DNA from: Eledone cirrhosa
Lineage: Eukaryota
DNA: 64,000 bases
Reading direction: 5' to 3'
Assembly: GCA_964016885.1 (NCBI GenBank)
Contig: CAXHJY010000304.1
Span: 140,070-204,069, forward strand
Part shown: in pieces, positions 39,076 through 64,000 of the stretch
Layout: each line of letters starts with the position of its first letter
Position numbering within the stretch: the first letter of the stretch is position 1
Translations under genes and position numbers: made by a program
Notes under the pieces: generated by a model
The model's input: only the letters and a program-made list of their open reading frames with translations
Told to the model about the DNA's origin: nothing
The model's database searches: none

Positions 39076-39316
39076 TATATTTTTATTGAACAGGGTTGAG
39101 AGAGACATCAGCTGGTCTCTGTTCTGACTCTCACTACAGTTTCTATTTCTTTATTAATTCACATTAAATTACAAAGTGCTGCTTGACATTGACATATATT
39201 TGTTTATATATATGTTTGTATATGAATGTATATATATATATATATGTATATATATATTTATGTATATGTATATATATATTTATATATGTGTATATGTATG
39301 TATGTATGTATATATG

Positions 39317-39348
<32 letters not shown>

Positions 39349-39506
39349 TGTATGTATGTATGTATGTATGTATGTATATATATGTATATGTATGTATATA
39401 TATGTATATGTATGTATGTATATATGTATGTATGTATATATGTATATGTATGTATATATGTATATGTATGTATGTGTATATGTATGTATGTATATATGTA
39501 TGTATG

Positions 39507-39540
<34 letters not shown>

Positions 39541-39580
39541 TATATGTATGTATGTATATATATATGTATGTATGTATGTA

Positions 39581-39649
<69 letters not shown>

Positions 39650-39725
39650 ATATATATGTATGTATATATATATGTATGTATATATATATGTATGTATATA
39701 TGTATGTATGTATATATATATGTTA

Positions 39726-40365
39726 TGTCAGGTCACCAGTTGGTGCTACTGGTAACATGTATCCCAGTACAACCTGTCTCATGGTCGGGTCGTTGGCGAC
39801 TAAACTGGCAACCCCACCAAGGTTTCTTGGTGAGGAGGGTGACTTTGGACATCCTGCAGGACTAAAAACAAAACCTGTCAAAGGGCAAAGGAGCTCTTAA
39901 GAGTCAATGGCCATCCAAAATCACCGGGAGAGATGACCCCTTTAGCCTTAGTCAAGGCAGAATTCTAGGAGAAGGAAAACTCTGATATAACACCTGCAAC
40001 CCTGATGGTATCCAATGATGTTGACTTGTTCTTCTTTTTGGTAAATAGCATCTTGGTTAAGAGAGTGGGACTGGCTTTGTGCAGTGCCTTTGCTCACTAT
40101 AAAAGCTTCACGGCACAGGCATTGCTTTATATCTGGAGATCTCTCTGCACTTGTCCTCACATGGGCCCAGCACTATGTGTCAATAATTGTCCTACCATGG
40201 GCCTAGCACTATGTGTCAATAATTGTCATAGGTGTAGTGTTTGTACCAGAGGTTTCAGGTCGCTGGCTGGACTAAAAAGTCACACTCGTTCGGCGCTTCG
40301 GTAGGGGTTATCCTACATGGATGTAAAGTAGTGGCCGTACTCGAAAACGAGTTGGCAGCCACCAT
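39726..40365 (+). mobile_element. Non-autonomous RTE-derived element X, copy 1 (with a ~37-bp-period internal duplication at 40161-40227)
   Basis: The 5' part resembles an RTE 5' UTR (ctaggagaaggaaaactctgat). The 3' part encodes a C2H2-type C-terminus ([17 protein letters not shown]) followed by a short 3' UTR ending gcagccaccat. Confidence 0.75.
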
Positions 40366-40588
40366 ATATATATGTATGTATATATATATGTATGTATATA
40401 TATATGTATGTATATATATATGTATGTATATATATATGTATGTGTATATATATATGTATGTGTATATATATATGTATGTATATATGTATGTATGTATATA
40501 TATATGTATGTATATATATATATGTATGTATATATATATATGTGTATATATATATATGTATGTATATATATATATGTATGTATATATG

Positions 40589-40619
<31 letters not shown>

Positions 40620-40638
40620 GTATGTATATATGTATATA

Positions 40639-40671
<33 letters not shown>

Positions 40672-41673
40672 ATATATATGTATGTATATATATATGTATG
40701 TATATATGTATGTATGTATATATATATGTATGTATATATATATGTATGTATATATATATATGTATGTATATATATATATATGTATGTATATATATATATA
40801 TATGTATGTATATATATATGTATGTATATATATATGTATGTATATATATATGTATGTATATGTATATGTATGTATATATATATGTGTATGTATATATATA
40901 TGTATATGTATATATATGTGTATGTATATATATATGTGTATGTATATATATATGTGTATGTATATATATATGTGTATGTATATATATATGTGTATGTATA
41001 TATATATGTGTATGTATATATATATGTGTATGTATATATATATGTGTATGTATATATATATGTGTATGTATATATATATGTGTATGTATATATATGTGTA
41101 TGTATATATATGTGTATGTATATATATGTGTATGTATATATATGTGTATGTATATATATGTGTATGTATATATATATGTATATATATATGTGTATGTATA
41201 TATATGTGTATGTATATATATATGTGTATGTATATGTATGTATATGTATGTATGTGTATGTATATATATATGTATATGTATGTATATGTATGTATGTATA
41301 TGTATGTATATGTATGTATGTATATGTATGTATGTATATGTATGTGTATATGTATGTATATATGTATGTATATGTATGTATATATATGTATATATGTATG
41401 TATATATATGTATATATGTATGTATATGTATGTATATATGTATGTATATATGTATGTATGTATATATGTATGTATGTATATGTATGTATGTATATGTATG
41501 TATATGTATATGTATGTATATGTATGTATATGTATATGTATGTATATATATATATGTATATGTATGTATATATATGTATATGTATGTATATATATATATG
41601 TATATGTATGTATATATATATATGTATATGTATGTATATATATATATGTATGTATATATATATATGTATGTAT

Positions 41674-41704
<31 letters not shown>

Positions 41705-41795
41705 TGTATATATGTGTGTGTATGTATATATGTGTGTGTATGTATATATGTGTGTGTATGTATATATGTGTGTGTATGTATATATATATGTATGT

Positions 41796-41836
<41 letters not shown>

Positions 41837-41906
41837 TGTATGTATATATATATGTATATATATATGTATGTATATGTATGTATGTATGTATATATATATG
41901 TATGTA

Positions 41907-41939
<33 letters not shown>

Positions 41940-42295
41940 ATATATATGTATGTATATATATATGTATGTATATATATATGTATGTATATATATATGTATG
42001 TATATATATATGTATGTATATATATATGTATGTATATATATATGTATGTATATATATATATGTATGTATATATATATGTATGTATATGTATGTATGTATA
42101 TATATATGTATGTATATATGTATGTATATATATATGTATGTATATATATATGTATGTATATATATATGTATGTATATATATATGTATGTATATATATATG
42201 TATGTATATATATATGTATGTATATATATATGTATGTATATATATATGTATGTATATATGTATGTATATATATATGTATGTATATATATATATAT

Positions 42296-42454
42296 GGCAC
42301 TGTGTCAATAATGGTCACAAGTGTAGTGTCTGTACCAGAGTTTTCAAGTCGCTGGCTGGACTAAAAAGTCACATTCGTTCAGCGCATCGGTAGGGGTTCT
42401 CCTACATGGATATAAAGTAGTGGCCGTACTCGAAAACGAGTTGGCAGCCACCAT
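42296..42454 (+). mobile_element. Element X, 5'-truncated copy (3' 160 bp only)
   Basis: [25 protein letters not shown] plus the 3' UTR; same 3' end as the full copies. Confidence 0.85.
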
Positions 42455-42887
42455 GTATATATATATGTATGTATATATGTATGTATGTATATATATATGT
42501 ATGTATATATATATGTATGTATATATATATGTATGTATATATATATGTATGTATATATATATATGTATGTATATATATATGTATATATGTATGTATATAT
42601 ATATGTATGTATATATATATGTATGTATGTATATATATATGTATGTATATATATATGTATGTATGTATATATATATGTATATATGTATGTATATATATAT
42701 GTATGTATATATATATGTATGTATGTATATATATATGTATGTATATATATATGTATGTATGTATATATATATGTATATATGTATGTATATATATATGTAT
42801 GTATATATATATGTATGTATATATATATGTATATATATATGTATGTATATATATATGTATGTATATATGTATGTATGTATATATGTA

Positions 42888-42920
<33 letters not shown>

Positions 42921-42957
42921 ATATGTATGTATATATGTATGTATGTATGTATATATA

Positions 42958-43568
42958 TGTCAGGTCACCAGTTGGTGCTACTGGTAACATGTATCCCAGT
43001 ACAACCTGCCTCATGGTCGGGTCGTTGGCGACTAAACTGGCAACCCCACCAAGGTTTCTTGGTGAGGAGGGTGACTTTGGACATCCTGCAGGACTAAAAA
43101 CAAAACCTGTCAAAGGGCAAGGGAGCTCTTAAGACTCAATAGCCATCCAAAATCACCGGGAGAGATGACCCCTTAGCCTTTGTCAAGGCAGAATTCTAGG
43201 AGAAGGAAAACTCTGATATAACACCTGCAACCCTGATGGTATCCAATGATGTTGACTTGTTCTTCTTTTTGGTAAATATCATCTTGGTTAAGAGAGTGGG
43301 ACTGGCTTTGTGCAGTGCCTTTGCTCACTATAAAAGCTTCACGGCACAGGCATTGCTTTATATCTGGAGATCTCTCTGCACTTGTCATCACATGGTATCA
43401 TGGGCCCTGCACTATGTGTCAATAATGGTCACAAGTGTAGTCTTTGTACCAGAGTTTTCAAGTCGCTGGCTGGACTAAAAAGTCACATTCGTTCAGCGCA
43501 TCGGTAGGGGTTCTCCTACATGGATATAAAGTAGTGGCCGTACTCGAAAACGAGTTGGCAGCCACCAT
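42958..43568 (+). mobile_element. Element X, copy 2
   Basis: Runs tgtcaggtcaccagttggtg to gttggcagccaccat; highly similar to the other copies. Confidence 0.85.
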
Positions 43569-43963
43569 GTATATATATATGTATGTATATATATATGTAT
43601 GTATATATATATGTATGTATATATATATGTATGTATATATGTATGTATGTATATATGTATGTATATATATATGTATGTATATATATATGTATGTATATAT
43701 ATATGTATGTATATATATATGTATGTATATATATATGTATGTATATATATATGTATGTATATATATATGTATGTATATATATATGTATGTATATATATAT
43801 GTATGTATGTATATATATATATGTATGTATATATATATGTATGTATATATATATGTATGTATATATATATGTATGTATATATATATGTATGTATATATAT
43901 ATGTATGTATATATATATGTATGTATGTATGTATGTATATATGTATGTATGTATGTATATATG

Positions 43964-44006
<43 letters not shown>

Positions 44007-44896
44007 GTATGTATATATGTATGTATGTATATATGTATGTATGTATATATATGTATGTATATATGTATGTATGTATATATATGTATGTATATATGTATGT
44101 ATGTATGTATATATGTATGTATGTTTATATATTGACCACGTCTTGACCAAACAAAATATAATATTTTCACCAAAAACTGCCCTTTAAACACGTCAGATGG
44201 ATTACAATATTCATTATCACAATTACTTTCACTGTTCCCTGACAACTAGTACCAGTTTCAAGATAGAATTATCTTAACGAAGTATATATAATTTCACTTG
44301 ATTTTCGCCAACGAACCACGTGTGGACATGGACGGGGAAAAAAAACAAAACAAATCACTACGTCCCTTAAGGATCGCAGTAAGTACTCCACAAAACATAT
44401 AAACAACAATATACACACAGATTTATATACAGATACATACCATATGCATATACACACACGTGAAAAGAAACCACACTATTGCGTGTGAGACACTATACCG
44501 GCCAATTTTACCAATTTACATTGGTAAAATATTTCTTAACATTGACCTCGCTTCTAACCCACATACACCTTTTAATTATATATATATACTAGCAGCTGAA
44601 AGTTAATAATTTGAAAAAAAAATATTATTGAAAGTTTACTATAAAGAAGCAGTATCAGGGAATAAAAAAAAAAAAAAAAAAAAAAACGTTATTCGCTGTT
44701 AATAAACAACTGCCTTCTACAGTACGTTTCATTTAACTTTCGCAGCATATTTATTTGTTTACATGCACAGACTCTTCTACACACACACAACATTTAGGAA
44801 AACGGAAACAAAATACACAAAAAAAACAGACATTTTATTTCTATCGTAATCAAGTGCGCTAAACCTATATTGTTTACATTCTGTGTTTTTCTACGG

Positions 44897-46126
44897 ATGG
44901 GTAGAAATAACAAAATTGCCATGGTGATGTCCATCGATGAAATTTGCGACAAAACTGGTCGATGTCCAAAAATAGAACATTGCCCGGAAGATCACACCTG
45001 CCATATCTGTACGGAACCCGAAAACTCGTTCCGTAATCGCTGGGTCGAATGTGGAACCTGTCGCATCTCTGTCTGCCTTCAATGCGCCACAGGCTTCCGG
45101 AAGATCCCAGGCCAAAATAAGAAACATCACATTGCTACGATGGATAGACTCTGGGAGATGGTCCAGCTAACAAACTGGTCCTTTCAGTGCCTGGGCTGTA
45201 TGCCTGCTTCTCCCATTACTGCGGAACAACAACAAAGACCGAAGATCGTGTCTTCTACCATTGTTCCTGAACAACAACAACAAAAACCGAGGATCGTGTC
45301 TTCCTCTACCATTGTCGCTGAACAACAGCAAAAACCAACGACCGTAGCTTCTGCTACTACCCCCGTTGAAGGACTTCATCAACAACAGCAACCCATGTCT
45401 TCCTCACCCGTTACTTTTCAACAACAACAACCGACGACTGTGTCTTCTACCATTCCTGTTGAAGGAGAAGAACAACAACAAAAACCGACCGTCAATACGG
45501 AGTTTGAGGAAATACGGCAAATGATTTCCGCTTTAAGTCAAGAAATAGCGGAAATAAAATCAAGCGTTCGTGTAGAACCCCACAATGAGGGATCTTACCG
45601 GAGTGTCTTGTTAAAAAATCTCCGCGTACCTCATGTTGAACCTAGACGCATTGAGAATGCCACTGAAACTGCAAACCACGAAGTGATTGCCATCGGTGTG
45701 CCGGAAGACATAGTTGATCTTCAGGCATTTGCTACCAGTTCATCCAAAGACCTGGGCTGTGCTCCCGCAAAGGGTGCTCTACGCCTTGGCCGACCAGGCC
45801 CGAAACCCAGGTTAATTAGACTGTCGTTTTCAAACTCGGCTGAGGCACGTTCATACCTTGTAGCCTCTGATAAAGCTAGGCGTGAAAGTCGGATTGCTTT
45901 CCGAACACGTCCTGGTCTTCCACCTGATGTCCGCCCAAAGTTGCGTGCTGCAGCTTCCCTAAACCGCAGCTCGGCAGAACATGAAAGCTTCAGCCTACGA
46001 GATGATGGGCAGATATGGAGGTTTGTTAAGGCTGGCGAATCATGGAAAAGAGACACCAGCTGGTCTGAAAACAGTGTACCCACAACAACTGACAATAAAG
46101 AAACTGAAAAAACTCTGGGAAACTAA
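44897..46126 (+). CDS. LINE-A ORF1p (PHD-like zinc finger, Gln-rich repeats, coiled coil, RRM-like C-terminal part)
   Basis: First ATG at 44897. CHIC...WVECGTC...CLQC...FQCLGC; heptad segment FEEIRQMISALSQEIAEIKS; VIAIGVPE and RLGR...PRLIRLSF motifs typical of CR1/L2 ORF1. Confidence 0.88.
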   Translation: MGRNNKIAMVMSIDEICDKTGRCPKIEHCPEDHTCHICTEPENSFRNRWVECGTCRISVCLQCATGFRKIPGQNKKHHIATMDRLWEMVQLTNWSFQCLGCMPASPITAEQQQRPKIVSSTIVPEQQQQKPRIVSSSTIVAEQQQKPTTVASATTPVEGLHQQQQPMSSSPVTFQQQQPTTVSSTIPVEGEEQQQKPTVNTEFEEIRQMISALSQEIAEIKSSVRVEPHNEGSYRSVLLKNLRVPHVEPRRIENATETANHEVIAIGVPEDIVDLQAFATSSSKDLGCAPAKGALRLGRPGPKPRLIRLSFSNSAEARSYLVASDKARRESRIAFRTRPGLPPDVRPKLRAAASLNRSSAEHESFSLRDDGQIWRFVKAGESWKRDTSWSENSVPTTTDNKETEKTLGN

Positions 46127-46185
46127 ATCAGAACAACCTGCCATCCCCTGCACATAATCATAGACTGGAATCAAAGTACAAACTG

Positions 46186-48945
46186 TTGTCCTTGAATGCA
46201 CGTAGTCTATGCAATAAGATTCATCTTTTTGACTCCTACGTCAAAAGTATCAACCCGGACTTCATTACAGTCACGGAAACTTGGGCACATCCCTTACTCT
46301 GTGATGGGGTTTTCAGCATGACTGGCTACAACCTGTTTCGTAAAGACCGTATTAATCGTCGTGGTGGTGGTGTAATGGTCTACGTTCGGTCAAATCTGTC
46401 GGCAATTCCTTGTGCTGATTTGAACCAATCACAGCAGGAAGTTTTTTTCTGCGATATACGTATGACCATGTCAACACTGCTACTTGGAGTCGTTTACCGT
46501 CCCCCAAATTACCATCAGGACACTCAACTTTGTGATATCCTCAGAGCTGCTGCCAGGAAGACAGCCACTTATGTTTTCATTGCAGGTGACTTCAATCACC
46601 CTGAGATTGACTGGGAGACCTTTCGTTGGCCGCCAAGTGCAAATGACTTCCTTGAGCTGGTGCTGGACTCGAGTTGGTCCCAGGTGGTCACCTCCCCAAC
46701 GAGAGGTGACAACACTTTGGACCTACTCTTCACCACTACTCCTGAAACGGTCATTAGTGTTACTGCTGAGGAACCTTTAGGTGACTCTGATCATGCTATG
46801 ATCATTGCCAATCTATCCCTCATGGGCAGTAACAAGAACCACAACCATCTCCAAACTGCTCACTTTGACTGGAATAGAGCAGACTGGAACTGTTACTGCA
46901 CCGAGTTGCAACGGCCAAACTGGCTTGAGTTCTATGACTCTGGAGATGTCAACACTGTACTCCAGAACATCCTGAGCTCAATATGGACAGCATGTGCAGC
47001 ATCGGTGCCACGTAAGCGGAAAAAACATCCTAAAAGCGCAATTTGGGAGACTGCAGCAGTCCGTCTTGCCAGAAAAGAACGGCGCAATGCTGAACGTGAG
47101 TACAAACTTCACAAATCAGACATTAATAGGAAGAGGCGAAATAGATCGTCCAACCACCTCAAACAGGTGACAAAAAAGGCAGTGCTTCAATTTGAGCAGC
47201 GCATAGCAACCAGCCCTGACAGTAAGGTGTTCTGGAAGTATGTTCACTCAAAGCAGAGGCCTCACTCTCCAGTTGGTCCTCTTCGCAATCCCCACACAAG
47301 CCAGGTTACTGACGACCCCAAGGAATGCGCAGAGCTCATTGCTGAATGCTATGCAGGCATTTTCACCATTGAAGACCAGAGTGTACCATCTCCACCACCT
47401 ATGACACCGGACTCTATTACAACCATGGAATTTACACCTGCAATGCTGCGACGTCACCTAAAAAATAAACGCAACCATGCCTCTCCTGGTCTTGATGGTG
47501 TTACATACCTGCTTCTTAAACGTGGTGGGTACTTCCTTCTACGCCAGTTATCACGCTTCTTCCAATTCTGTCTGAACAACAGTGCTACTCCAGAACAGTG
47601 GAAAACTGCCAGTGTAATTCCTCTGTTCAAAAAGGGTGACCGCACATCACCTGTGAACTATCGTCCAGTCAGTCTTACTAGTTGCATCGCCAAACTGATG
47701 GAATCCTGTGTCAGAGAAACACTTTGGAACTTCTGGAGCTCTCACAGTCTTATCCGGCCTTCGCAATTTGGATTTATCCCCAACTCCAGCTGCTGTGATC
47801 AACTTATAGAGTTTCTTGAGGACATCACCCGGATCACTGATGGCGGCTCATGGGTGGATGTTGTTTACCTTGACTTTGCGAAGGCCTTCAATTCTGTGCC
47901 GCACAAAAGGCTTATGGCAAAACTCTCTGCAATGGGTGTGAAGGATGATCTTTTTAACTGGTTGAAGTCCTTCATTCTCAGTCGAAGAGAGGTAGTCACG
48001 GTTCTGGGACAGCATTCCTCACCATATGAGATGTCATCTGGTGTACCTCAGGGATCTGTTCTTGGCCCCCTTTTGTTTGTGGCATATATTAATGACATAG
48101 ATGCCAACTTAAGGAATGCCACAGTACTAAAGTACGCAGACGACATCAAGCTGTACCTTGAGATAAAAAGGACAGATCCTGAACACTATAGATCTTGCTT
48201 GCAGTCTGACCTGGACACAATGCAACAGTGGATCTCAGACTGGCAACTCAAGCTAGCTGTGGACAAGTGCACCACCATGCATTTTGGGAGTAAAAACCCA
48301 GCGTCCACATATTCCCTCCACAGCACTAATATCAAGAAGTCTTCCTGTGAACGTGACCTGGGCATTACGGTCAGCAGCGATTTGCGTTGGACGAGGCACG
48401 TCTCTAAAATTGTCAAGAGGGCCGAGGGTGTCTTAGCATCACTCAGCAAGACCTTTGTCAGCCGCTCTCCAGATATCTATTTAAGGCTGTATACAGCTAT
48501 GGTGCGACCACACTTAGAATTTGCATCACCAGTCTGGAACCCCTATCTTGCTCAGGACATTGACCGCCTGGAAACTGTTCAGAGACGTGCAACCAAGCGA
48601 ATACCCTCCATCAGGCATCTACCATACTCTGATCGCCTTGCTTCCCTGGGCATGGATTCATTGAAGCTCCGACGCCTGGCAACTGACTTGGTAAACACCC
48701 ACAAAATTGTTAACCATGTTGCCAACAACAACCCTGAGTGCCTTTTCGATTTCCATGTGTCTAACACACGTGGACATGCCCACAAAGTAAGAAAACAGCA
48801 CAGTTCCCATGACTTTCGGAAACATTTTTTCACGCTCAGAGTTGCTGAAGCATGGAACAAACTACCTGCATCAGTTGTTAGCTGTCGAGACGCTGCATCC
48901 TTTAAGGCCTCCATGCTTCCCGAGATCCGCCAACACTACAGCTAA
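46186..48945 (+). CDS. LINE-A ORF2p (APE endonuclease plus reverse transcriptase), uninterrupted
   Basis: LNARS, VTETW, GGGV, YRPP, GDFN, LDL, SDH, NYRPVSLTS, YLDFAKAF, GVPQGSVLGP, YADD, RPHLEFASPVWNP and TRGH. The start shown is a TTG; the frame is already open at 46117. Confidence 0.95.
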   Translation: MSLNARSLCNKIHLFDSYVKSINPDFITVTETWAHPLLCDGVFSMTGYNLFRKDRINRRGGGVMVYVRSNLSAIPCADLNQSQQEVFFCDIRMTMSTLLLGVVYRPPNYHQDTQLCDILRAAARKTATYVFIAGDFNHPEIDWETFRWPPSANDFLELVLDSSWSQVVTSPTRGDNTLDLLFTTTPETVISVTAEEPLGDSDHAMIIANLSLMGSNKNHNHLQTAHFDWNRADWNCYCTELQRPNWLEFYDSGDVNTVLQNILSSIWTACAASVPRKRKKHPKSAIWETAAVRLARKERRNAEREYKLHKSDINRKRRNRSSNHLKQVTKKAVLQFEQRIATSPDSKVFWKYVHSKQRPHSPVGPLRNPHTSQVTDDPKECAELIAECYAGIFTIEDQSVPSPPPMTPDSITTMEFTPAMLRRHLKNKRNHASPGLDGVTYLLLKRGGYFLLRQLSRFFQFCLNNSATPEQWKTASVIPLFKKGDRTSPVNYRPVSLTSCIAKLMESCVRETLWNFWSSHSLIRPSQFGFIPNSSCCDQLIEFLEDITRITDGGSWVDVVYLDFAKAFNSVPHKRLMAKLSAMGVKDDLFNWLKSFILSRREVVTVLGQHSSPYEMSSGVPQGSVLGPLLFVAYINDIDANLRNATVLKYADDIKLYLEIKRTDPEHYRSCLQSDLDTMQQWISDWQLKLAVDKCTTMHFGSKNPASTYSLHSTNIKKSSCERDLGITVSSDLRWTRHVSKIVKRAEGVLASLSKTFVSRSPDIYLRLYTAMVRPHLEFASPVWNPYLAQDIDRLETVQRRATKRIPSIRHLPYSDRLASLGMDSLKLRRLATDLVNTHKIVNHVANNNPECLFDFHVSNTRGHAHKVRKQHSSHDFRKHFFTLRVAEAWNKLPASVVSCRDAASFKASMLPEIRQHYS

Positions 48946-49565: not shown

Positions 49566-50175
49566 TGTCAGGTCACCAGTTGGTGCTACTGGTAACATGT
49601 ATCCCAGTACAAACTGTCCCATGGTCGGGTCGTTGGCGACTAAACTGGCAACCCCACCAAGGTTTCTTGGTGAGGAGGGTGACTTTGGACATCCTGCAGG
49701 ACTAAAAACAAAACCTGTCAAAGGGCAAAGGAGCTCTTAAGAGTCAATGGCCATCCAAAATCACCGGGAGAGATGACCCCTAGCCTTTGTCAAGGCAGGA
49801 TTCTAGGAGAAGGAAAACTCTGATATAACACCTGCAACCCTGATGGTATCCAATGATGTTGACTTGTTCTTCCTTTTGGTAAATATCATCTTGGTTAAGA
49901 GAGTGGGACTGGCTTTGTGCAGTGCCTTTGCTCACTATAAAAGCTTCACGGCACAGGCATTGCTTTATATCTAGAGATCTCTCTGCACTTGTCGTCACAT
50001 GGTACCATGGGCCCAGCACTATGTGTCAATAATTGTCACAACTGTAGTGTTTGTACCAGAGTTTTCAAGTCGCTGGCTGGACTAAACAGTCACACTCGTT
50101 CAGCGCATCGGTAGGGGTTCTCCTACATGGATATAAAGTAGTGGCCGTACTCGAAAACGAGTTGGCAGCCACCAT
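49566..50175 (+). mobile_element. Element X, copy 3
   Basis: Same termini and body as the other copies. Confidence 0.85.
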
Positions 50176-50176
50176 G

Positions 50177-50207
<31 letters not shown>

Positions 50208-50746
50208 ATATGTATGTATGTATATATATATGTATGTATATATATATGTATGTATATATATATGTATGTATATATGTATGTATGTATGTATATATATATG
50301 TATGTATGTATGTATATATATATGTATGTATATATATATGTATGTATATATATATGTATGTATATATATATGTATGTATATATGTATGTATATATGTATG
50401 TATATATGTATGTATATATGTATGTATATATATATGTATGTATATATATATGTATGTATATATATATGTATGTATATATATATGTATGTATATATGTATG
50501 TATATATATATATATATGTATATGTATGTATATATATGTATATGTATATGTATATGTATGTATATATGTATGTATATGTATATGTATATGTATGTATATA
50601 TGTATGTATATGTATGTATATATGTATGTATATATGTATGTATGTATATATGTATGTATATATATATATGTATGTATATATGTATGTATATATATATGTA
50701 TGTATATATATATGTATGTATATATGTATGTATATATATATGTATG

Positions 50747-50786
<40 letters not shown>

Positions 50787-51736
50787 TGTATGTATATATA
50801 TATATGTATGTATATATATATGTATGTATATATATATATGTATATATATATATGTATATATATATATGTGTATATATATATGTGTATATATATATATGTG
50901 TATATATATATATGTATGTATATATATATGTATGTATATATATATATGTATGTATATATATATATATATGTATGTATATATATATATGTATGTATATGTA
51001 TGTATATATATATGTGTATGTATATATATATGTGTATGTATATATATGTATATGTATATATATGTATATGTATATATATGTATATGTATATATATGTGTA
51101 TGTATATATATATGTGTATGTATATATATATGTGTATGTATATATATATGTGTATGTATATATATATGTGTATGTATATATATATGTGTATGTATATATA
51201 TATGTGTATGTATATATATATGTGTATGTATATGTATATGTATATATATGTGTATGTATATATATATGTATATATATATGTGTATGTATATATATATGTG
51301 TATGTATATATATATGTGTATGTATATATATATGTATATGTATGTATATGTATGTATATGTATGTATGTATATGTATGTATATATGTATGTATATGTATG
51401 TATATATGTATGTATATGTATGTATATATGTATGTATATGTATGTATATATGTATGTATATGTATGTATATATGTATGTATATGTATGTATATATGTATG
51501 TATATATGTATGTATATGTATGTATATATGTATGTATATGTATATATATATATATATGTATATGTATGTATATATGTATATGTATGTATATATGTATATG
51601 TATGTATATATATGTGTGTGTATGTATATATATATGTATGTATATATATATGTATGTATATATATATGTATGTATATATATATGTATGTATATATATATA
51701 TATGTATGTATATATATATGTATGTATATATGTATG

Positions 51737-51768
<32 letters not shown>

Positions 51769-51774
51769 TGTATG

Positions 51775-51836
<62 letters not shown>

Positions 51837-51852
51837 TATGTATATATATATG

Positions 51853-51892
<40 letters not shown>

Positions 51893-52096
51893 TGTATGTA
51901 TATATATATGTATGTATATATATATGTATGTATATATGTATGTATATATATATGTATGTATATATATATGTATGTATATATATATATGTATGTATATATA
52001 TATGTATGTATATATATATGTATGTATATATATATGTATGTATATATATATGTATGTATATATATATGTATGTATATATATATGTATATATGTATG

Positions 52097-52160
<64 letters not shown>

Positions 52161-52306
52161 TATATATATATGTATGTATATATATATGTATGTGTATATA
52201 TATATGTATGTATATATATATGTATGTATATATATATGTATGTATATATATATGTATGTATATATGTATGTATGTATATATGTATGTATGTATATATGTA
52301 TGTATG

Positions 52307-52340
<34 letters not shown>

Positions 52341-52448
52341 TGTATGTATGTATGTATGTATGTATGTATGTATGTATGTATGTATGTATGTATGTATGTA
52401 TGTATGTATGTATGTATGTATGTATGTATGTATGTATGTATGTATATA

Positions 52449-52790
52449 TCATCATTCATCATTTCATTTTACGTCCGCTTTTTCCCTGCTTGCAAGGGTG
52501 GGACGGGAACTGATTCTGGCTTGATTTCTACAGCTGGATGCCCTTCCTAACACCAACCTCATTTACAGTGAGTGCTGGGTGCTTTTTTGCCGTGGCACCT
52601 CCACGACCACTTTGCAGTGGAATGATATGGACCCCAGTCCCTATCATCTCATTTTTACAGCTGAGTAAACTGGAGCAATGTGAAATAAAGTGTCTTGCTC
52701 AAGGAAACAACACATCACCCGGTCTGAGAATTGAACTCACAACCTTTCGATTGCAAGGCCAATGCTCTAACCACTAAGCCATGTGCCTCC
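52449..52790 (-). mobile_element. SINE family Y
   Basis: Reverse complement of 49121-49460; appears identical to 53906-54247. Confidence 0.9.
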
Positions 52791-53495
52791 ATATATATGT
52801 ATGTATGTATATATATATGTATGTATGTATATATATATGTATGTATGTATGTATGTATATATATATGTATGTATGTATATATATATGTATGTATGTATAT
52901 ATATATGTATGTATATATGTATGTATATATGTATGTATATATGTATGTATATATATATGTATGTATATATATATGTATGTATATATATATGTATGTATAT
53001 ATGTATGTATATATATATATATATGTATATGTATGTATATATATGTATATGTATATGTATATGTATGTATATATGTATGTATATGTATGTATATATGTAT
53101 GTATATGTATGTATATATGTATGTATATATATATATGTATGTATGTATATATGTATGTATATATATATATGTATGTATATATATATATATGTATATATAT
53201 ATATGTATGTATATATATATGTATATATGTATGTATATATATATATGTATGTATGTATATATGTATGTATATATGTATGTATATATATATATGTATGTAT
53301 ATATGTATATATGTATATATGTATATATGTATGTATATATATATATGTATGTATATATATATGTATGTATATATATATGTATGTATATATATATGTATGT
53401 ATATATGTATGTATGTATATATATATGTATGTATATATATATGTATGTATATATATATGTATGTATATATATATGTATGTATATATATATGTATG

Positions 53496-53535
<40 letters not shown>

Positions 53536-53581
53536 TGTATGTATATATGTATGTATATATGTATGTATGTATGTATGTATA

Positions 53582-53617
<36 letters not shown>

Positions 53618-53767
53618 TGTATATATATATATGTATGTATATATATATGTATGTGTATATATATATGTATGTATATATATATGTATGTATATATATATGT
53701 ATGTATATATGTATGTATGTATATATGTATGTATGTATATATGTATGTATGTATATATGTATGTATG

Positions 53768-53801
<34 letters not shown>

Positions 53802-53905
53802 TGTATGTATGTATGTATGTATGTATGTATGTATGTATGTATGTATGTATGTATGTATGTATGTATGTATGTATGTATGTATGTATGTATGTATGTATGT
53901 ATATA

Positions 53906-54247
53906 TCATCATTCATCATTTCATTTTACGTCCGCTTTTTCCCTGCTTGCAAGGGTGGGACGGGAACTGATTCTGGCTTGATTTCTACAGCTGGATGCCC
54001 TTCCTAACACCAACCTCATTTACAGTGAGTGCTGGGTGCTTTTTTGCCGTGGCACCTCCACGACCACTTTGCAGTGGAATGATATGGACCCCAGTCCCTA
54101 TCATCTCATTTTTACAGCTGAGTAAACTGGAGCAATGTGAAATAAAGTGTCTTGCTCAAGGAAACAACACATCACCCGGTCTGAGAATTGAACTCACAAC
54201 CTTTCGATTGCAAGGCCAATGCTCTAACCACTAAGCCATGTGCCTCC
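53906..54247 (-). mobile_element. SINE family Y (tandem duplicate, offset 1457 bp)
   Basis: Shares the private variants gatatggacc and catttttacag with 52449-52790. Confidence 0.9.
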
Positions 54248-55399
54248 ATATATATGTATGTATGTATATATATATGTATGTATGTATATATATATGTATG
54301 TATGTATGTATGTATATATATATGTATGTATGTATATATATATGTATGTATGTATATATATATGTATGTATATATGTATGTATATATGTATGTATATATG
54401 TATGTATATATATATGTATGTATATATGTATGTATATATATATGTATGTATATATATATGTATGTATATATGTATGTATATATATATGTATGTATATATG
54501 TATGTATATATATATATATATGTATATGTATGTATATATATGTATATGTATATGTATATGTATGTATATATGTATGTATATGTATGTATATATGTATGTA
54601 TATGTATGTATATATGTATGTATATATATATATGTATGTATGTATATATGTATGTATATATATATATGTATGTATATATATATATATGTATATATATATA
54701 TGTATGTATATATATATGTATATATGTATGTATATATATATATGTATGTATGTATATATGTATGTATATATATATATGTATGTATATATATATGTATGTA
54801 TATATGTATATATGTATATATGTATATATGTATGTATATATATATATGTATGTATATATATATGTATGTATATATATATGTATGTATATATATATGTATG
54901 TATATATATATGTATGTATATATATATGTATGTATATATATATGTATGTATATATATATGTATGTATATATATATATGTATATATATATGTATGTATATA
55001 TATATGTATGTATATATATATATGTATGTATATATATATATGTATGTATATATATATGTATGTATATATATATATATGTATGTATATATATATATGTATG
55101 TATATATGTATGTATGTATATATATATATGTATGTATATATATATATGTGTATATATATATATGTATGTATATATATATATGTATGTATATGTATGTATA
55201 TGTATGTATATATATATGTATATGTATGTATATATATATGTATATGTATGTATATATGTATGTATATGTATGTATATATGTGTATGTATATGTATGTATA
55301 TGTATATGTATGTATATGTATATGTATGTATATATATGTATATGTATGTATATGTATATGTATGTATATATATGTATATGTATGTATATGTATGTATGT

Positions 55400-55436
<37 letters not shown>

Positions 55437-55438
<2 letters not shown>

Positions 55439-58400
55439 ACTTTGAATAACTTTGAAATGTTTTGGCCAGTATTGGCCCAGGCCATGTCTAACTTAATAGC
55501 ACCACCTGGCGAAGTCTTTCAATTCAGGATTTGGGCACCATGGCCCATTCGAGAAGAGAATTACTGTTTGCGGAGACATATCCGGGTGTGGGTGGTTTGT
55601 CCGGGATTACTTGGAGGAATTTGTCCAAAGACTTCTTGAATTTTGTGTGGTCAGTTTCTGTTTTGACGTGTCCTGGTGTGATGTTGAAGAGAGCAGGGCC
55701 GATTGAGGTGAAATAATTGTGCCGTATTGTTGTTATGAGTTGCGATTTAGATTTTTGAATGGGACGGATAGCACGGGGCCCAAGCCTTGGGTGTATCTTG
55801 AAGGCGATGCCAACATCATTTGGGCAGTGATGATGGAACATTTTCCACATCATGCAGATAATATAACGCTCACGGCGACGTTGGAGTGAGTAAAGTTTCA
55901 GGTTTTCCAATCGACCCCAGTAGTCAAGGTCTGACATGCCATCTATCTTTTTCGTGATTGCCCTTTGAGGAGCTTCAAGTTTCATGATACTTTGTTTCGT
56001 GTGGGGAGACCACAGTGGACAACAGTATTCAAGGTGTGGTCGGGCGAAAGTAGAGAAGAGAAGGATAATGGTGCGGGAATCTCTCGACTGGAAGGTTCTG
56101 AGGATCCAGGAACACATTCTGCGGGCCATGTCAACTTTGCTGCTTATATGCGTGGTCCAGCTTATGTTGCTGTCCACGGTTACTCCCAAGTCTCTGATGT
56201 TGTTAGATGCCACGAGAGTTTCCCCGGAGGGAAGGGAGTACGGGAGTTTCAGAGCATCCTCTTTTCCAAAGTGGATCAGTTCGAATTTGTCTTCGTTCAG
56301 TAACATGTTGTTCTTTTCTGCCCATTGGGTAACAGCCAGTAGGTCTGACTGAAGGCTTATCCGGTCATCCACGCCATTGATGACCTTTTGGAGCTTGGAA
56401 TCATCAGCGAAAATTTTAATGTTGCTGTGTTTGATGATGTCAGTGATGTCATTAATATAGATGATGAAGAGAAGTGGGCCCAACACAGTGCCTTGTGGGA
56501 CTCCACTACTGACTTTGGCTGGGCTTGATTTGACTCCCTCAACTACAACATGTTGGGTTCTGTTTGACAGGAAGCTCTTGATCCACTGCAGCAGCTTTCC
56601 AGTGACACCAATATTGGACAGCTTTCTCAGTAGAATGTTATGATCAACCCTGTCAAAGGCCTTGCTGAAATCAAGGTAGATAACATCAGTGTTGGAACCC
56701 TCTCCCAAGGCTCTCAAAATGTCATCAAAGTGATGCAGTAGTTGCGTCAGGCAATCCCTTCCATTACGGAATCCATGCTGGTTGGAGTTCAGCATATTGT
56801 TACTCTCAAGGAAGTGGGTCATTCGCGATCTCACCACTCGCTCAAATACCTTAATGATATGAGAGGTGAGTGAGATTGGACGGTAATTTACGGCAAGGGA
56901 TTTGTTTCCCTTTTTGAAAACTGGGACAACAGACTGGGATAGGTTTTCTGGCACATATCCAGCATCCAGTGAGTTCCGCCACAGATTGGCAAGAGGAGAA
57001 GCAAGTTGGTGTTGACACGCCTTCAAGACACAAGCAGGGAACCTATCGGGACCTACTGCTGAATTATGCTTGATTTCCTTTATTGCCGCCAAGACATCAG
57101 GGGCGCCAAACGTTATGTCCGATAAGGTGTAATGGGGAGTAACATCGCCGATACAGCCCAGATCGGCCATATCAGGATTGCTGAAAACAGAGCAGTATTG
57201 TTTCTGCAGTATCTCACCCATGGTTTTAGCATTGTCTTGAAGAGTGCCATTTTCATCAATTAGAGGGCCAACAGTAGAGCCAGTGATTTTGTGTTTTTTT
57301 GCAAATGAAAAGAACACTTTGGGATTGAGTTTGATCTTCTCAATGGCCCAGGCCTCTTCAGCTCTTCTCTGATTGTTGATGAGGGACATTATGTTGTTTT
57401 GGAGGTTATGTTTTTTAATCTCTAGTGATGAAATGGCAGTCAAGTTGATGTGTTGCTGCTGACAGTATTTCAGCTTGTTGATTTTTTTGTTCGTTCTCTT
57501 AATTTTTCTGATGAGCGTTTTTCTATTTCTAGGGATTCTGCTCTTAGATTTGTTTATAGTTCTTAATGGGGTGTGTTTAGCACATATGTTTGTAACAGTG
57601 TCCACAAATGTCTGCCAGGACTTTTTGATGTTAGTGGGTGTATGAGTGTGCGTGAAGGACCAGTCGACATGTGCAAGATCATGACTGATCGCTTCCCAGT
57701 TTGCATTGTGGAAATCCATAGCGTCAAACGGATGGACAGGAGAGATGACATTGGGTTTGTATATTGGACGGTGGAATCTCAGATCACAGAGAACCATGTC
57801 ATGATCAGAGAGTAGAGTTTTCTCCACTGCAATATTGTGGATATTGTCAGTGTGATTGCTGAAAATTAAGTCTAGGACGTTTTTGTGGCACCTCGTTGGT
57901 TCGAGCACTAGTTGGGATAGGAAGAAATCATCCATGAAGTCAAGAAGCGATTCCACAGCTTCCCTGTCAGAGGTTGAGGCAGAAGAACCTGGTGGCAGGG
58001 TGTTTGTGGACCAGTCAACTCCGGGGAGGTTGAAGTCCCCTATCATTAAGATGTTGTCAGGGTGACACTCTTGGATGAAACACTTTATGCTGTTGAGGCA
58101 TTCCTTGAAGCATGGTACAGGCGTTTGGGGTGGCCTATAGAGCCCAACTACTAATAGGTTGTTGGTTTGACTGAATACAGTGACTGCCTCACAGTATCCA
58201 TTAGTGAATATGTTCATAGCCTCTGTTGAGAAAGAATTATGGACATAAATGGCAGTTCCGCCCTTTCTTCTGCCAGCCCGATCAGCACGGATGGCTTTGA
58301 AATTTTTCACTTTCACCTCGGCTTCCAAGTGGAGGTTACTGAGATGGGTTTCAGTGAGGACGAAGAAAGGGATGTGGTTTGGATGGACATCAATCCAGTC

Positions 58401-58725
58401 CTCCAGGAATTTGATCTTCCATTTTTGAGTATTGGTGGAAGGGCTGATGCCTTGGGCGTTAAGCAAAAATGTAGAGGCGAGAGTGGATGGTTTTAATTGT
58501 TTTGGTGTGTTGTTAATTTGTTTGTTTGTTAATGGCAGCAATGGGAGTTTGTGCAGTGGGGTGATAGTGGAGGGTGGTGCTGGGTGATAGCTCGAATGTT
58601 TTTTTCCAGTTCTTTTGCCAGATTCATTATGGCTAAAAAAGAGGAAGAAGTTTCCTGTTTAGAAGACTGTTGGTGACTGTGGTAGTGGTTATTTTTATGT
58701 AGGTTATGGTTTTTGTTTTTGCTTT
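55437..58725 (-). mobile_element. CR1-group LINE (LINE-B), 5'-truncated within ORF1, ORF2 intact
   Basis: About 60 codons of a putative ORF1 C-terminus, a full ORF2, and an ~85-bp 3' UTR ending (TTCAAAGTTA)2. Both ends abut TA/TATG arrays. Confidence 0.9.
55524..58541 (-). CDS. LINE-B ORF2p (APE endonuclease plus reverse transcriptase), uninterrupted 1005 aa
   Basis: [67 protein letters not shown] and SLQRRRERY. The start shown is a TTG. Confidence 0.95.
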
Positions 58726-59318: not shown

Positions 59319-60158
59319 ACTCTTTTACTCTTTACCTGTTTCAGCCATCCGGCTGAGGCCATGCTGGGGCACCGCCCTTGTTGCTACACATTTTATCTCC
59401 AGCCTGTACAGGTTGGCCACTGGTGTAGGAGGGAGTTTGTTGCTGCTGCCCTTAGGTTTCCCTCGTGTCTTGCTGTGGGCTCATCCGGGATCCTCGATAA
59501 CAAGGTGTCGAGATGTTTCTTAAAGACATCCACCTCCACGTCATGCAAGTCTCGCAGATGCCTCGGCAGCCTGTTGAAGAGTTGAGGGCCCTTGAATCCC
59601 AGGCTATTGCAATACCTGCTCCTTATTCTAGATGTGGAAGACGGGACCTTTGGCACCACACAGTGACGTCCTGTTCGACGGTTGGTCCAGCTCCCAATGC
59701 CAAAGTTTGGTGCTAGTCCCTCCAGGATTTTCCACATGTAGATCACTGCGTATCTCTCCCGTCTTCGCTCCAAGGAGTAGAGGTTCAGTTCCTTCAGCCT
59801 CTCCCAGTAGCTTGTCTCCCTCATCTTGGCAATCCTCTTGGTGTAGCTTCGCTGGATTGCCTCGAGCTCTGTGGTTAGTTTGACACTATGGGGTGACCAC
59901 AGCTGGGAGCAGTAGTCCAGGCGGCTTAGGACAAAAGTCCTCCACAGTGTCAACATGGTGTCTCGATCTCTTGTAAGGAAAGTCCTCAAGATCCAGCCAG
60001 CGAATCGTCTACATGCTGTCGCCACCTTCATGATGTGTGAAGAAAAAGATGCATCATCGCTCATGTCTATGCCCAGGTCTCGTATCGATTTTGACACGGG
60101 GATATCGGTCCCTCCTGGTCCTGTGTAGCTGTGTTCCGCTATATTTGTGTTTGTGATA
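59319..60158 (-). mobile_element. 5'-truncated CR1-group LINE (LINE-C): ORF2 C-terminus, 3' UTR and (GTAAAAGA)2 tail
   Basis: Open frame RDLGIDMS...LDYCSQLWSP...YSLERRRERY to the stop at 59393; related to but distinct from LINE-B; flanked by TA repeats. Confidence 0.92.
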
Positions 60159-60341
60159 TATGTATATATATATATTTATATATATTATATGTGTATATAT
60201 ATATATGTGTATATATATATGTATATATATATATATATGTATATGTATATGTATGTATATATATATATGTATATATATGTATATATATGTATATATATAT
60301 ATATATATGTGTATATATATATATGTATATATATATATGTG

Positions 60342-60372
<31 letters not shown>

Positions 60373-60405
60373 GTGTATATATATATGTGTATATATATAT
60401 ATGTG

Positions 60406-60436
<31 letters not shown>

Positions 60437-60525
60437 GTGTATATATATATATGTGTATATATATATGTGTATATATATATATGTGTATATATATATATGT
60501 GTATATATATATATGTGTATATATA

Positions 60526-60576
<51 letters not shown>

Positions 60577-60633
60577 ATATATATGTATATATGTGTATAT
60601 ATGTATATATATATATATGTATGTATATATGTG

Positions 60634-60666
<33 letters not shown>

Positions 60667-60970
60667 GTATGTATATATGTATATATATATATGTATGTAT
60701 ATATGTATATATATATATATATGTATGTATATATATATATATATGTATGTATATATATATATATATATCTATATATATATATATGTATACTATATATATG
60801 TATATATATGTATATATATATATGTATATATATGTATATATATATATGTATATATATATATATGTATATATATATGTATATATATATATATATCTATATA
60901 TATGTATATATATATATATGTATATATATGTATATATATGTATATATATATATATGTATATATATATATG

Positions 60971-61002
<32 letters not shown>

Positions 61003-61032
61003 TGTATGTATATATATATATGTATATATATG

Positions 61033-61081
<49 letters not shown>

Positions 61082-61096
61082 GTATATATATATATG

Positions 61097-61143
<47 letters not shown>

Positions 61144-61220
61144 GTATGTATATATATATGTATGTATATATATATATATGTATATATATATGTATGTATA
61201 TATATGTATATATATGTATG

Positions 61221-61251
<31 letters not shown>

Positions 61252-61304
61252 GTATATATGTATATATATATATGTATATATGTATATATGTATATATATA
61301 TATG

Positions 61305-61466
<162 letters not shown>

Positions 61467-61472
61467 TGTATG

Positions 61473-61535
<63 letters not shown>

Positions 61536-61550
61536 GTATATATATATATG

Positions 61551-61597
<47 letters not shown>

Positions 61598-61694
61598 GTA
61601 TATATATATATGTATATATATATATATGTATATATGTATATATATGTATATATATGTATATATATGTATGTATATATATGTATATATATGTATG

Positions 61695-61729
<35 letters not shown>

Positions 61730-61786
61730 GTATATATGTATATATATATATATGTATATGTATATATATGTATATGTATATATATG

Positions 61787-61817
<31 letters not shown>

Positions 61818-62125
61818 GTATATATATATATGTATATATATATATATGTGTATATATGTATATGTGTATATATGTATATATGTATATGTATATATATGTG
61901 TATATATGTATATATGTATATGTATATATATGTATATATATATGTATATATGTATATGTATATATATATGTATATATGTATATATATATGTATATGTATA
62001 TATATATGTATATATGTATATATATATGTATATATATATGTATATATGTATGTATATATATATATGTATATATATATGTATATATATATGTATGTATGTA
62101 TATGTATGTATGTATATATATGTAT

Positions 62126-62157
<32 letters not shown>

Positions 62158-62305
62158 GTATGTATATATATATATGTATATATATATGTAATATGTATAT
62201 ATATATGTATGTATATATATATGTATATATATATATATATGTATATATATGTATATATATATATATGTATATATATGTATATATATATATATATGTATAT
62301 ATATG

Positions 62306-62336
<31 letters not shown>

Positions 62337-62727
62337 GTATATATATGTATATATATATATATATATGTATATATATGTATATATATATGTATATATATGT
62401 ATATATATATGTATATATATATGTATATAATATATGTATATATATATGTATATATATATGTATATATATATATATATGTATGTATATATATATATATATG
62501 TATATATATGTATATATATATATATATATGTATGTATATATATATATATATGTATATATATGTATATATATATATATCTATGTATATATATGTATATATA
62601 GTATATATATATGTATATATATGTATATATATATGTATATATATGTAATATATATGTAGATATATATGTATATATATATGTATATATATATGTATATATA
62701 TATATATATATTATGTATATATATATG

Positions 62728-62758
<31 letters not shown>

Positions 62759-62779
62759 TATAGTATATATATGTATATG

Positions 62780-62810
<31 letters not shown>

Positions 62811-62811
62811 G

Positions 62812-62841
<30 letters not shown>

Positions 62842-62842
<1 letters not shown>

Positions 62843-63454
62843 GTCAGGTCACCAGTTGGTGCTACTGGTAACATGTATCCCAGTACAACCTGTCTCATGG
62901 TCGGGTCGTTGGCGACTAAAACTAAACTGGCAACCCCACCAAGGTTTCTTGGTGAGGAGGGTGACTTTGGACATCCTGCAGGACTAAAAACAAAACCTGT
63001 CAAAGGGCAAAGGAGCTCTGAAGAGTCAATGGCCATCCAAAATCACCGGGAGAGATGACCCCTTAGCCTTTGTCAAGGCAGAATTCTAGGAGAAGGAAAA
63101 CTCTGATATAACACCTGCAACCCTGATGGTATCCAATGATGTTGACTTGTTCTTCTTTTTGGTAAATATCATCTTGGTTAAGAGAGTGGGACTGGCTTTG
63201 TGCAGTGCCTTTGCTCACTATAAAAGCTTCACAGCACAGGCATTGCTTTATATCTGGAGATCTCTCTGCACTTGTCGTCACATGGTACCATGGGCCCAGC
63301 ACTATGTGTCAATAATTGTCACAGGTGTAGTGTTTGTACCAGAGTTTTCAAGTCGCTGGACTAAAAAGTCACACTCGTTCAGCGCACCGGTAGGGGTTCT
63401 CCTACATGGATATAAATTAGTGGCCGTACTCGAAAACGAGTTGGCAGCCACCAT
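62842..63454 (+). mobile_element. Element X, copy 4
   Basis: Same termini; small private duplication actaaaactaaa. Confidence 0.85.
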
Positions 63455-63648: not shown

Positions 63649-64000
63649 TGTCAGGTCACCAGTTGGTGCTACTGGTAACATGTATCCCAGTACAACCAGT
63701 CTCATGGTCAGGTCGTTGGCGACTAAACTGGCAACCCCACCAAGGTTTCTTGGTGAGGAGGGTGACTTTGGACATCCTGCAGGACTAAAAACAAAACCTG
63801 TCAAAGGGCAAAGGAGCTCTTAAGAGTCACTGGCCATCCAAAATCACTGGGAGAGATGACCCCTTAGCCTTTGTCAAGGCAGAATTCTAGGAGAAGGAAA
63901 ACTCTGATATAGCACCTGCAACCCTGATGGTATCCAATGATGTTGACTTGTTCTTCTTTTTGGTAAATATCATCTTGGTTAAGAGAGTGGGACTGGCTTT
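63649..64000 (+). mobile_element. Element X, copy 5 (runs off the window)
   Basis: 5' 350 bp match the other copies; shares the atgtta 5' flank with copy 1. Confidence 0.85.

Follow-up and report, generated by a model that had tools for sequence, protein, structure and literature searches.

The mode by which LINE retrotransposons translate their second open reading frame (ORF2) is an open question, and a minus-strand element, LINE-B, in 64,000 nt of Eledone cirrhosa DNA (the whole stretch analysed here, termed the window) poses it directly: how is an ORF2 that lacks a usable AUG, and whose frame overlaps that of ORF1, expressed? An earlier note on this DNA had pointed to slippery heptamers in the ORF1/ORF2 overlap. 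The analyses below argue that the LINE-B ORF2 is likely made by programmed -1 frameshifting at the first of them, a site whose exact sequence is conserved over a deep animal clade.

An ORF2 without a usable start codon

LINE-B has the features of an APE-type non-LTR retrotransposon, namely an ORF2 encoding an APE endonuclease and a reverse transcriptase, 5'-truncated copies, a 3' tandem repeat and no LTR, and we infer a CR1-group placement from this architecture and from C-terminal motifs that we take to match those of that group. The copy in the window has lost its 5' end at about position 58725, where it abuts a (TA)n run. It retains the 3' remnant of ORF1 (58529..58725, minus strand, as are all LINE-B positions), composed of an N/H/K-rich linker, a Phe-Leu helix and a tail ending in TAA at 58531-58529, together with an open ORF2 frame of 1044 aa (55524..58658; P/S/T-rich linker, APE endonuclease and reverse transcriptase) and a 3' UTR with terminal repeat (55437..55523). 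The two frames share a dual-coding overlap of 130 nt (58529..58658).

The heptamers U_UUU_UUA (Ser-Phe-Leu, 58634..58640) and A_AAA_AAC (58598..58604) both lie in this overlap and, as the earlier note had claimed, both are phased in the frame that ends HCCH* (58640-58634 and 58604-58598) and both shift -1 into ORF2. Its reading of the ORF2 frame was also borne out: the frame begins 18 nt (6 codons) 5' of the first heptamer and contains no ATG before the interior of the endonuclease, the first in-frame AUG (58215..58217, in STEAMN) being codon 148. The residues aligned with Asn14 (58458..58460) and Glu43 (in TETH, 58350..58352) of the L1 endonuclease are both encoded 5' of this AUG. They were placed by alignment to the L1 endonuclease, which a profile search of the PDB matched and a single-sequence search missed; their equivalents are required for endonuclease catalysis. 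From the Phe-Leu of the heptamer onward, ORF1 encodes what reads from its sequence as an amphipathic helix (58580..58639).

The locus combines two elements of a programmed -1 signal, an X_XXY_YYZ heptamer phased in the upstream ORF and inside the overlap, with a downstream ORF in the -1 frame that is open from the site and has no usable start. Dinucleotide shuffles of the 130-nt overlap gave at least one phased heptamer in 24% of cases and at least two in 3%, and the window copy alone is thus compatible with chance. The case for frameshifting stands instead on how the site is kept from family to family, and this applies to the first heptamer alone.

Elsewhere in the window, long simple-repeat tracts (39158-44245, 50048-55450 and 60150-62850) show strong GC skew and can be read through in many frames, and the many ORFs listed in them are artefacts. 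Near-identical copies of a short interspersed repeat lie at 62860-63400 and 63650-64000, about 830 nt apart.

Copies of LINE-B and two related families in the genome

LINE-B is a young, high-copy family, with 1217 candidate copies of which the best 40 are all identical across 426 nt. The ORF1 frame, which the earlier note had read from only about 60 codons, proved continuous in 20 longer copies picked from these best 40 matches, 13 of which begin at one Met; 15 of the 20 carry an ORF2 of 1043-1045 aa. The complete ORF1 is about 390 aa long (392 aa in L031:3586-4764) and comprises a weak Myb/SANT-like head, a poly-Q stretch, two CCCH-like fingers and the Phe-Leu helix. The heptamer core, T6A, is present in 94 of the first 100 listed copies (577 were matched by both flanks), and the other six have run-length changes (+1 in three, -1 in two and +2 in one). 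Since the longer copies and the T6A counts agree, the out-of-frame layout of ORF1 and ORF2 is the norm of the family and not an assembly error.

A six-T run could also act at the level of transcription, with RNA polymerase II slipping on it and adding a U, so that a share of transcripts would have fused frames. The three copies in 100 with one additional T could be retrotransposed products of such slipped RNA. However, copies with -1 (2/100) and +2 (1/100) changes are equally frequent, a spectrum that fits ordinary homopolymer error, and the phase of the run is constant, its length nearly so and its end an A, features that re-pairing of tRNAs requires but polymerase slippage does not. Furthermore, one relative (L138) has G_GAT_TTT instead of the run. 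We consider polymerase slippage very unlikely, and frameshifting on the ribosome the better account of the run.

Two other families of the same genome share the site. LINE-C, which adjoins LINE-B in the window as a 3' fragment (59319..60150, minus strand) and has 38% ORF2 identity to it, presents a phased U_UUU_UUA (Asn/Ile/His-Phe-Leu) in longer copies elsewhere: T_TTT_TTA was found in all 5 junction-reaching copies among 20 fetched, and 18 of 22 copies in all have it in register; the preceding codon is AAT, ATT or CAT, with its T always kept. In LINE-D, T_TTT_TTA occurs in 20/20 copies, six bases 3' of an ORF2-frame stop, and the first Met is codon 143 from the site in 18/20. This genome thus harbours at least three families of the clade (LINE-B, -C and -D), of which two each have more than a thousand candidate copies. 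Homolog searches with ORF1 and ORF2 returned one match each. A homolog, P0001, retains SFLAMLNLAKE, and no relatives were found in the viral contigs searched.

Several features of these copies were noted in passing. Copies of LINE-B, -C and -D are very often flanked on both sides by (TA)n (window 55437-58725 and 59319-60150; L031-L050, L238-L243), and LINE-B copies often lie beside LINE-C copies (window, L023), which suggests a shared preference for TA repeats. Within the LINE-B 5' UTR (L031:3100-3590), a segment of about 170 nt, with a short TA run in it, is duplicated in tandem. In the proteins P0144 and P0051 the frame of the ORF1 helix continues into that of the endonuclease; these are probably single copies with an indel 3' of the site.

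Conservation of U_UUU_UUA across the clade

A metagenome scan with an endonuclease alignment provided 80 of 470 loci found, of which 63 cover the junction region and 17 were dropped. In a quick IQ-TREE run, with SH-aLRT as its only support measure, 24 metagenome loci and LINE-B, -C and -D (27 rows) define a clade with SH-aLRT 100 and a median endonuclease identity of 33%. For codon-level tests we used 25 elements (the three families of this genome and 22 metagenome loci), leaving out L149, whose contig begins 3' of the site, and L158, which has no ORF1 partner; tests on 24 elements additionally omit L136, a decayed LINE-D copy.

The first ORF1-frame Phe-Leu pair of the overlap is encoded as T_TTT_TTA in 22 of the 25 elements, compared to 0.38 expected from the codon use of each element and to 0 of 102 other Phe-Leu pairs, which amounts to conservation at the nucleotide level beyond what the protein needs. 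The sites were first found by DNA pattern, and a definition based on protein only selects the same 25; P values for the test overstate independence, since all elements derive from one ancestor. The exact site is present in 8 of 9 clusters at 45% identity. The three exceptions are a G_UUU_UUA, a U_UUU_UUG and a CTG change accompanied by G_GAU_UUU one codon earlier (L138), G_GAT_TTT being a known plant-virus shift site. The residue 5' of Phe-Leu is variable (D, N, H, A, S, P, I or Q), with T as the third base of its codon in 24/25. L158 lacks the heptamer and, over 57 codons, any ORF1 partner, and an AUG lies upstream in it; the tally becomes 22/26 if it is counted as a miss. In a divergent family present in contigs of two other organisms, the junction alignment is limited to the heptamer and 23 nt. 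A matching -1-frame FF or xFR motif occurs in 8 of 20 proteins with long N-terminal extensions, a bare count with no chance baseline.

Constraint on the protein, together with chance in AT-rich DNA, might in principle leave a heptamer without any role, given that Phe-Leu starts a helix-like motif of similar pattern across the clade at the protein level and that the overlap shuffles yield phased heptamers as often as they do. Such constraint leaves synonymous codons free, yet Phe is TTT in 25/25 and Leu is TTA in 23/25 at the site, compared to 36 and 6 of the 102 Phe-Leu pairs elsewhere. The codon test largely refutes this explanation, which we regard as the least probable of those weighed here. 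On this codon-level evidence, the first heptamer is best read as a real and deeply conserved recoding signature.

The base right after the site is a G in 21/26, forming a splice-acceptor-like TTTTTTAG, and the sequence could accordingly be a 3' acceptor, for splicing or trans-splicing, through which an upstream exon is attached to ORF2. An acceptor would be expected to fix the AG, but here the AG varies (it is absent at that place in 5/25) and the T run is fixed. Moreover, among 650 genomic copies that contain the downstream 21-mer, 634 retain TTTTAG in front of it, and hence no abundant spliced class has been retrotransposed. No joint interrupts the site in contigs of sequencing runs tentatively taken to be RNA, but these may be DNA or unspliced. 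With neither an invariant AG nor spliced products found in these materials, whose RNA evidence is weak, splicing appears even more doubtful than polymerase slippage.

An open -1 frame that begins at the site

Synonymous recoding of ORF1 in 24 elements revealed that the -1 frame contains 0 stops from the site to the ORF1 stop or the endonuclease start, where 55 are expected, compared to 156 stops against 160 expected 5' of the site; the test is partly circular, as ORF2 was delimited by reading back from the endonuclease until a stop appeared. The position of the site within the overlap escapes this circularity: it lies at a median of 13.5 nt into overlaps with a median length of 278 nt (range 121-631 nt), and in L155 and L157 it is immediately 3' of the ORF2-frame stop. 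The first AUG 3' of the site is past the Asn14 equivalent in 16/24 elements and past the Glu43 equivalent in 8/24, including LINE-B. An in-frame AUG occurs well 5' of the endonuclease in 5/24 elements, and in three more it falls within the first endonuclease strand; elements with such an early AUG could in principle start there.

Ribosomes might alternatively reach ORF2 by termination-coupled reinitiation or a non-AUG start, restarting after ORF1 at the in-frame UUG and CUG that lie shortly 5' of the LINE-B ORF1 stop (58541-58536, i.e. 58536..58541) as candidate near-cognate starts. Reinitiation has been reported for both experimentally studied LINEs, SART1 and human L1, in the available text of the corresponding articles (PMC2881922, PMC3894237). 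It leaves unexplained, however, the invariant U run and the 55 missing -1-frame stops, which extend to about 600 nt 5' of the endonuclease. Nor is the ORF1 stop at a fixed place: measured from the start of the endonuclease, it varies between -56 and +13, and in 11/24 elements it falls inside the first endonuclease strand. Neither an overlapping UAAUG nor a nearby AUG, as in SART1-type coupling, was found at the LINE-B ORF1 stop. We judge reinitiation unlikely. The missing AUG, the conservation of the site at the codon level and the opening of ORF2 just 5' of it make -1 frameshifting the simplest account.

As a separate observation, the ORF1 stop of 11/24 clade elements is at the same place, the conserved Asn codon of the first endonuclease strand, and in these elements the ORF1 tail looks as though it runs to the first forced stop.

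The second heptamer and other LINE lineages

A_AAA_AAC, known as the gag-pro site of MMTV, does not occur in the overlap of any of the 23 other clade elements in which that overlap is intact, and was rejected as a conserved signal of the clade. Among contigs of related organisms, three preserve it and one has a 2-nt deletion in it; a more divergent family has another sequence there, and a decayed sister family of LINE-B keeps the A run with the frame broken. The second heptamer is thus confined to LINE-B and its close relatives, and probably incidental there, although it may add to slippage in LINE-B as an auxiliary site. Consequently, the suggestion of the earlier note that -1 frameshifting to ORF2 is general in the group is strongly supported, on comparative evidence, for U_UUU_UUA (22/25), but the equal weight that it gave to A_AAA_AAC (0/23 others) is not.

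The note had also proposed that two LINEs of the window share one signature, which is correct for the type of signal, but both the heptamer and the lineage differ. LINE-A, on the plus strand (ORF1 44897-46126, ORF2 46108-48945), has a 19-nt overlap with a phased G_GGA_AAC (46117..46123) immediately 5' of the ORF1 stop; it falls outside the clade in the tree, and the junction is identical in 30/30 of its best-scoring copies. Among 14 non-clade elements in which an ORF1 of at least 100 codons overlaps ORF2 in the -1 frame, a strict phased heptamer is present in 9. The count rises to 13/14, with 2.8 expected, if GGA is accepted as a first triplet (G_GAA_AAC), a relaxation of the pattern made after seeing the data. 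The sites of 13 of these 14 elements end in AAC. These counts suggest that the -1 heptamer signal is also present in lineages near LINE-A; among the other non-clade loci, a single-ORF or non-overlapping layout with an upstream AUG prevails.

Two further patterns were observed among these lineages. A separate, well-supported clade (L194, L201, L203, L204, L210 and L217) has A_AAA_AAC within a conserved Lys-Asn-Leu/Met-x-Trp and an ORF1 stop two bases 5' of the endonuclease start. Near LINE-A, a phased G_GAA_AAC (Glu-Asn) recurs in the short -1 overlaps of L191, L196, L197, L213 and L216.

Downstream structure and possible pairing with the 3' tail

No significant local structure was detected downstream of the LINE-B site (z +0.6 and -0.9). 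A 4-bp hairpin immediately 3' of the heptamer (58617..58633) is weak (z -0.86) and too close for a classical stimulator; one of its C-G pairs is a U-A double change in contigs of related organisms. In an unbiased scan, z < -2 was reached in any one downstream window by 5/24 elements and upstream by 0/24. Hairpins located 5-8 nt downstream in L148, L152, L155, L156 and L163 have z from -2.9 to -4.5, in windows chosen after inspection, and a hairpin that a sub-clade has 5-7 nt after the site presents one double-sided change among four sequences.

Long-range pairing gave a mixed picture. Of 40 sliding windows compared in the 11 elements whose 3' end is complete, the one following the heptamer scored best for pairing with the 3' tail (cross-family rank 3.6 compared to 6 expected, shuffle z -1.5, after eight settings had been tried). 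The signal was strongest in L150 (z -3.7) and L166 (z -3.0), in which about 15 in-register Watson-Crick pairs can form between post-heptamer bases and the 3' UTR 3.3 kb away. In LINE-B (z -2.0), the bases that follow the heptamer are complementary to boxes at 55510-55504 and 55486-55481 of the 3' UTR, their putative partners, and one self-complementary 4-mer is present on both sides of this pairing. The signal disappeared once intramolecular folding was counted (mean rank 6.3 of 11). LINE-B may rely on the basal slipperiness of its site or on 3' UTR pairing.

A direct repeat between junction and tail was found only in L144 among the 11 elements, where a 17-nt stretch just 3' of the heptamer (L144:1115-1135) recurs (16/17) at the 3' terminal repeat.

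Proposed mechanism and comparison with known systems

Taken together, these data make it quite probable that -1 ribosomal frameshifting at U_UUU_UUA yields an ORF1-ORF2 fusion. Most ribosomes would complete ORF1, with its Myb/SANT-like or PHD-like head, CCCH fingers, Phe-Leu helix and Q/P/H-rich tail. A minority would shift back by one base, with tRNA-Phe and tRNA-Leu pairing anew on the U run, then translate a disordered linker of 55-215 residues in the -1 frame and continue into the endonuclease and reverse transcriptase. The predicted fusion would keep the zinc fingers and drop the C-terminal helix, in a stoichiometry like that of Gag and Gag-Pol; a local hairpin 5-8 nt downstream could act as a stimulator in some relatives, with none in LINE-B. 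If this is true, the N-termini of these ORF2 proteins are annotated wrongly, the active enzyme is a fusion of the Gag-Pol kind, and LINE mobility could be subject to host control of frameshifting.

A broader proposal, which we put forward only tentatively, is that a retrovirus-style -1 frameshift is both ancient and the standard way in which several lineages of animal LINEs reach ORF2 (U_UUU_UUA in the clade with CCCH fingers; A_AAA_AAC, G_GAA_AAC or G_GGA_AAC around LINE-A), giving a zinc-finger-bearing ORF1-ORF2 fusion, with some families switched on by pairing to their own 3' UTR, such that only full-length RNA would yield reverse transcriptase.

Plant viruses of the barley yellow dwarf virus type use long-range stimulators of -1 frameshifting. 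The clade resembles them in the complementarity of post-site bases to the 3' UTR in L150, L166 and, weakly, LINE-B, but differs in that the clade members do not consistently share the tail pairing, which disappears once folding of the tail is taken into account. Older papers on single CR1 and R1 elements reportedly proposed frameshifts. Frameshifting is a known mechanism, placed here in a setting for which we found no description: the literature searched, in the text available (including PMC5405496, PMC7175516, PMC11203168 and PMC13343379, with subscription papers and Repbase outside its scope), does not describe this site in animal LINEs.

In the portions available, reviews on LINE ORF2 translation name reinitiation (SART1, L1), possible IRES use and 2A peptides only. 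The single 'non-LTR' mention in the available text of PMC5009743 concerns HeT-A and TART, and that of a 2026 survey of the CR1 group does not mention overlap, start codon or translation. Likewise, the available text of PMC4120745 mentions neither 'frameshift' nor 'overlap'. The CR1-group (Jockey superfamily) LINEs that it describes resemble our clade in an APE-RT ORF2 without RNase H, in short tandem 3' repeats and, for several relatives, in a PHD-like ORF1 head. None of the ORF1 types tabulated in that text combines two or three CCCH-like fingers with a Phe-Leu helix.

SART1 and human L1 face the same problem as LINE-B, a low-level translation of ORF2 from a bicistronic RNA that depends on ORF1 translation, but they make a separate ORF2p after termination (PMC2881922, PMC3894237, in the text available), whereas the LINE-B clade has no stop-start motif, its frames overlap and a fusion is predicted. 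For elements of Paramecium, +1 frameshifting or reinitiation has been suggested in the text available. The only printed precedent that we found in such text for a LINE ORF2 reached by -1 frameshifting is that of TRE5-A and TRE3-A, L1-clade non-LTR elements of Dictyostelium whose ORF2 is said to require a -1 shift (review PMC5911963); they are likewise APE-type elements, but from another clade and kingdom.

A close parallel is the gag-pol junction of HIV-1, for which U_UUU_UUA is the -1 frameshift site (PMC5009743, in the text available). Unlike HIV-1, the LINE clade is non-LTR and has no protease to cut the fusion, its overlaps are long (121-631 nt) and encode a helix 3' of the site, LINE-B has no conserved stem-loop and the frameshift is predicted. 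The two systems are alike in the heptamer and its phase, in a purine, usually G, right after the site, and in a structural gene placed upstream of an AUG-less polymerase gene in the -1 frame.
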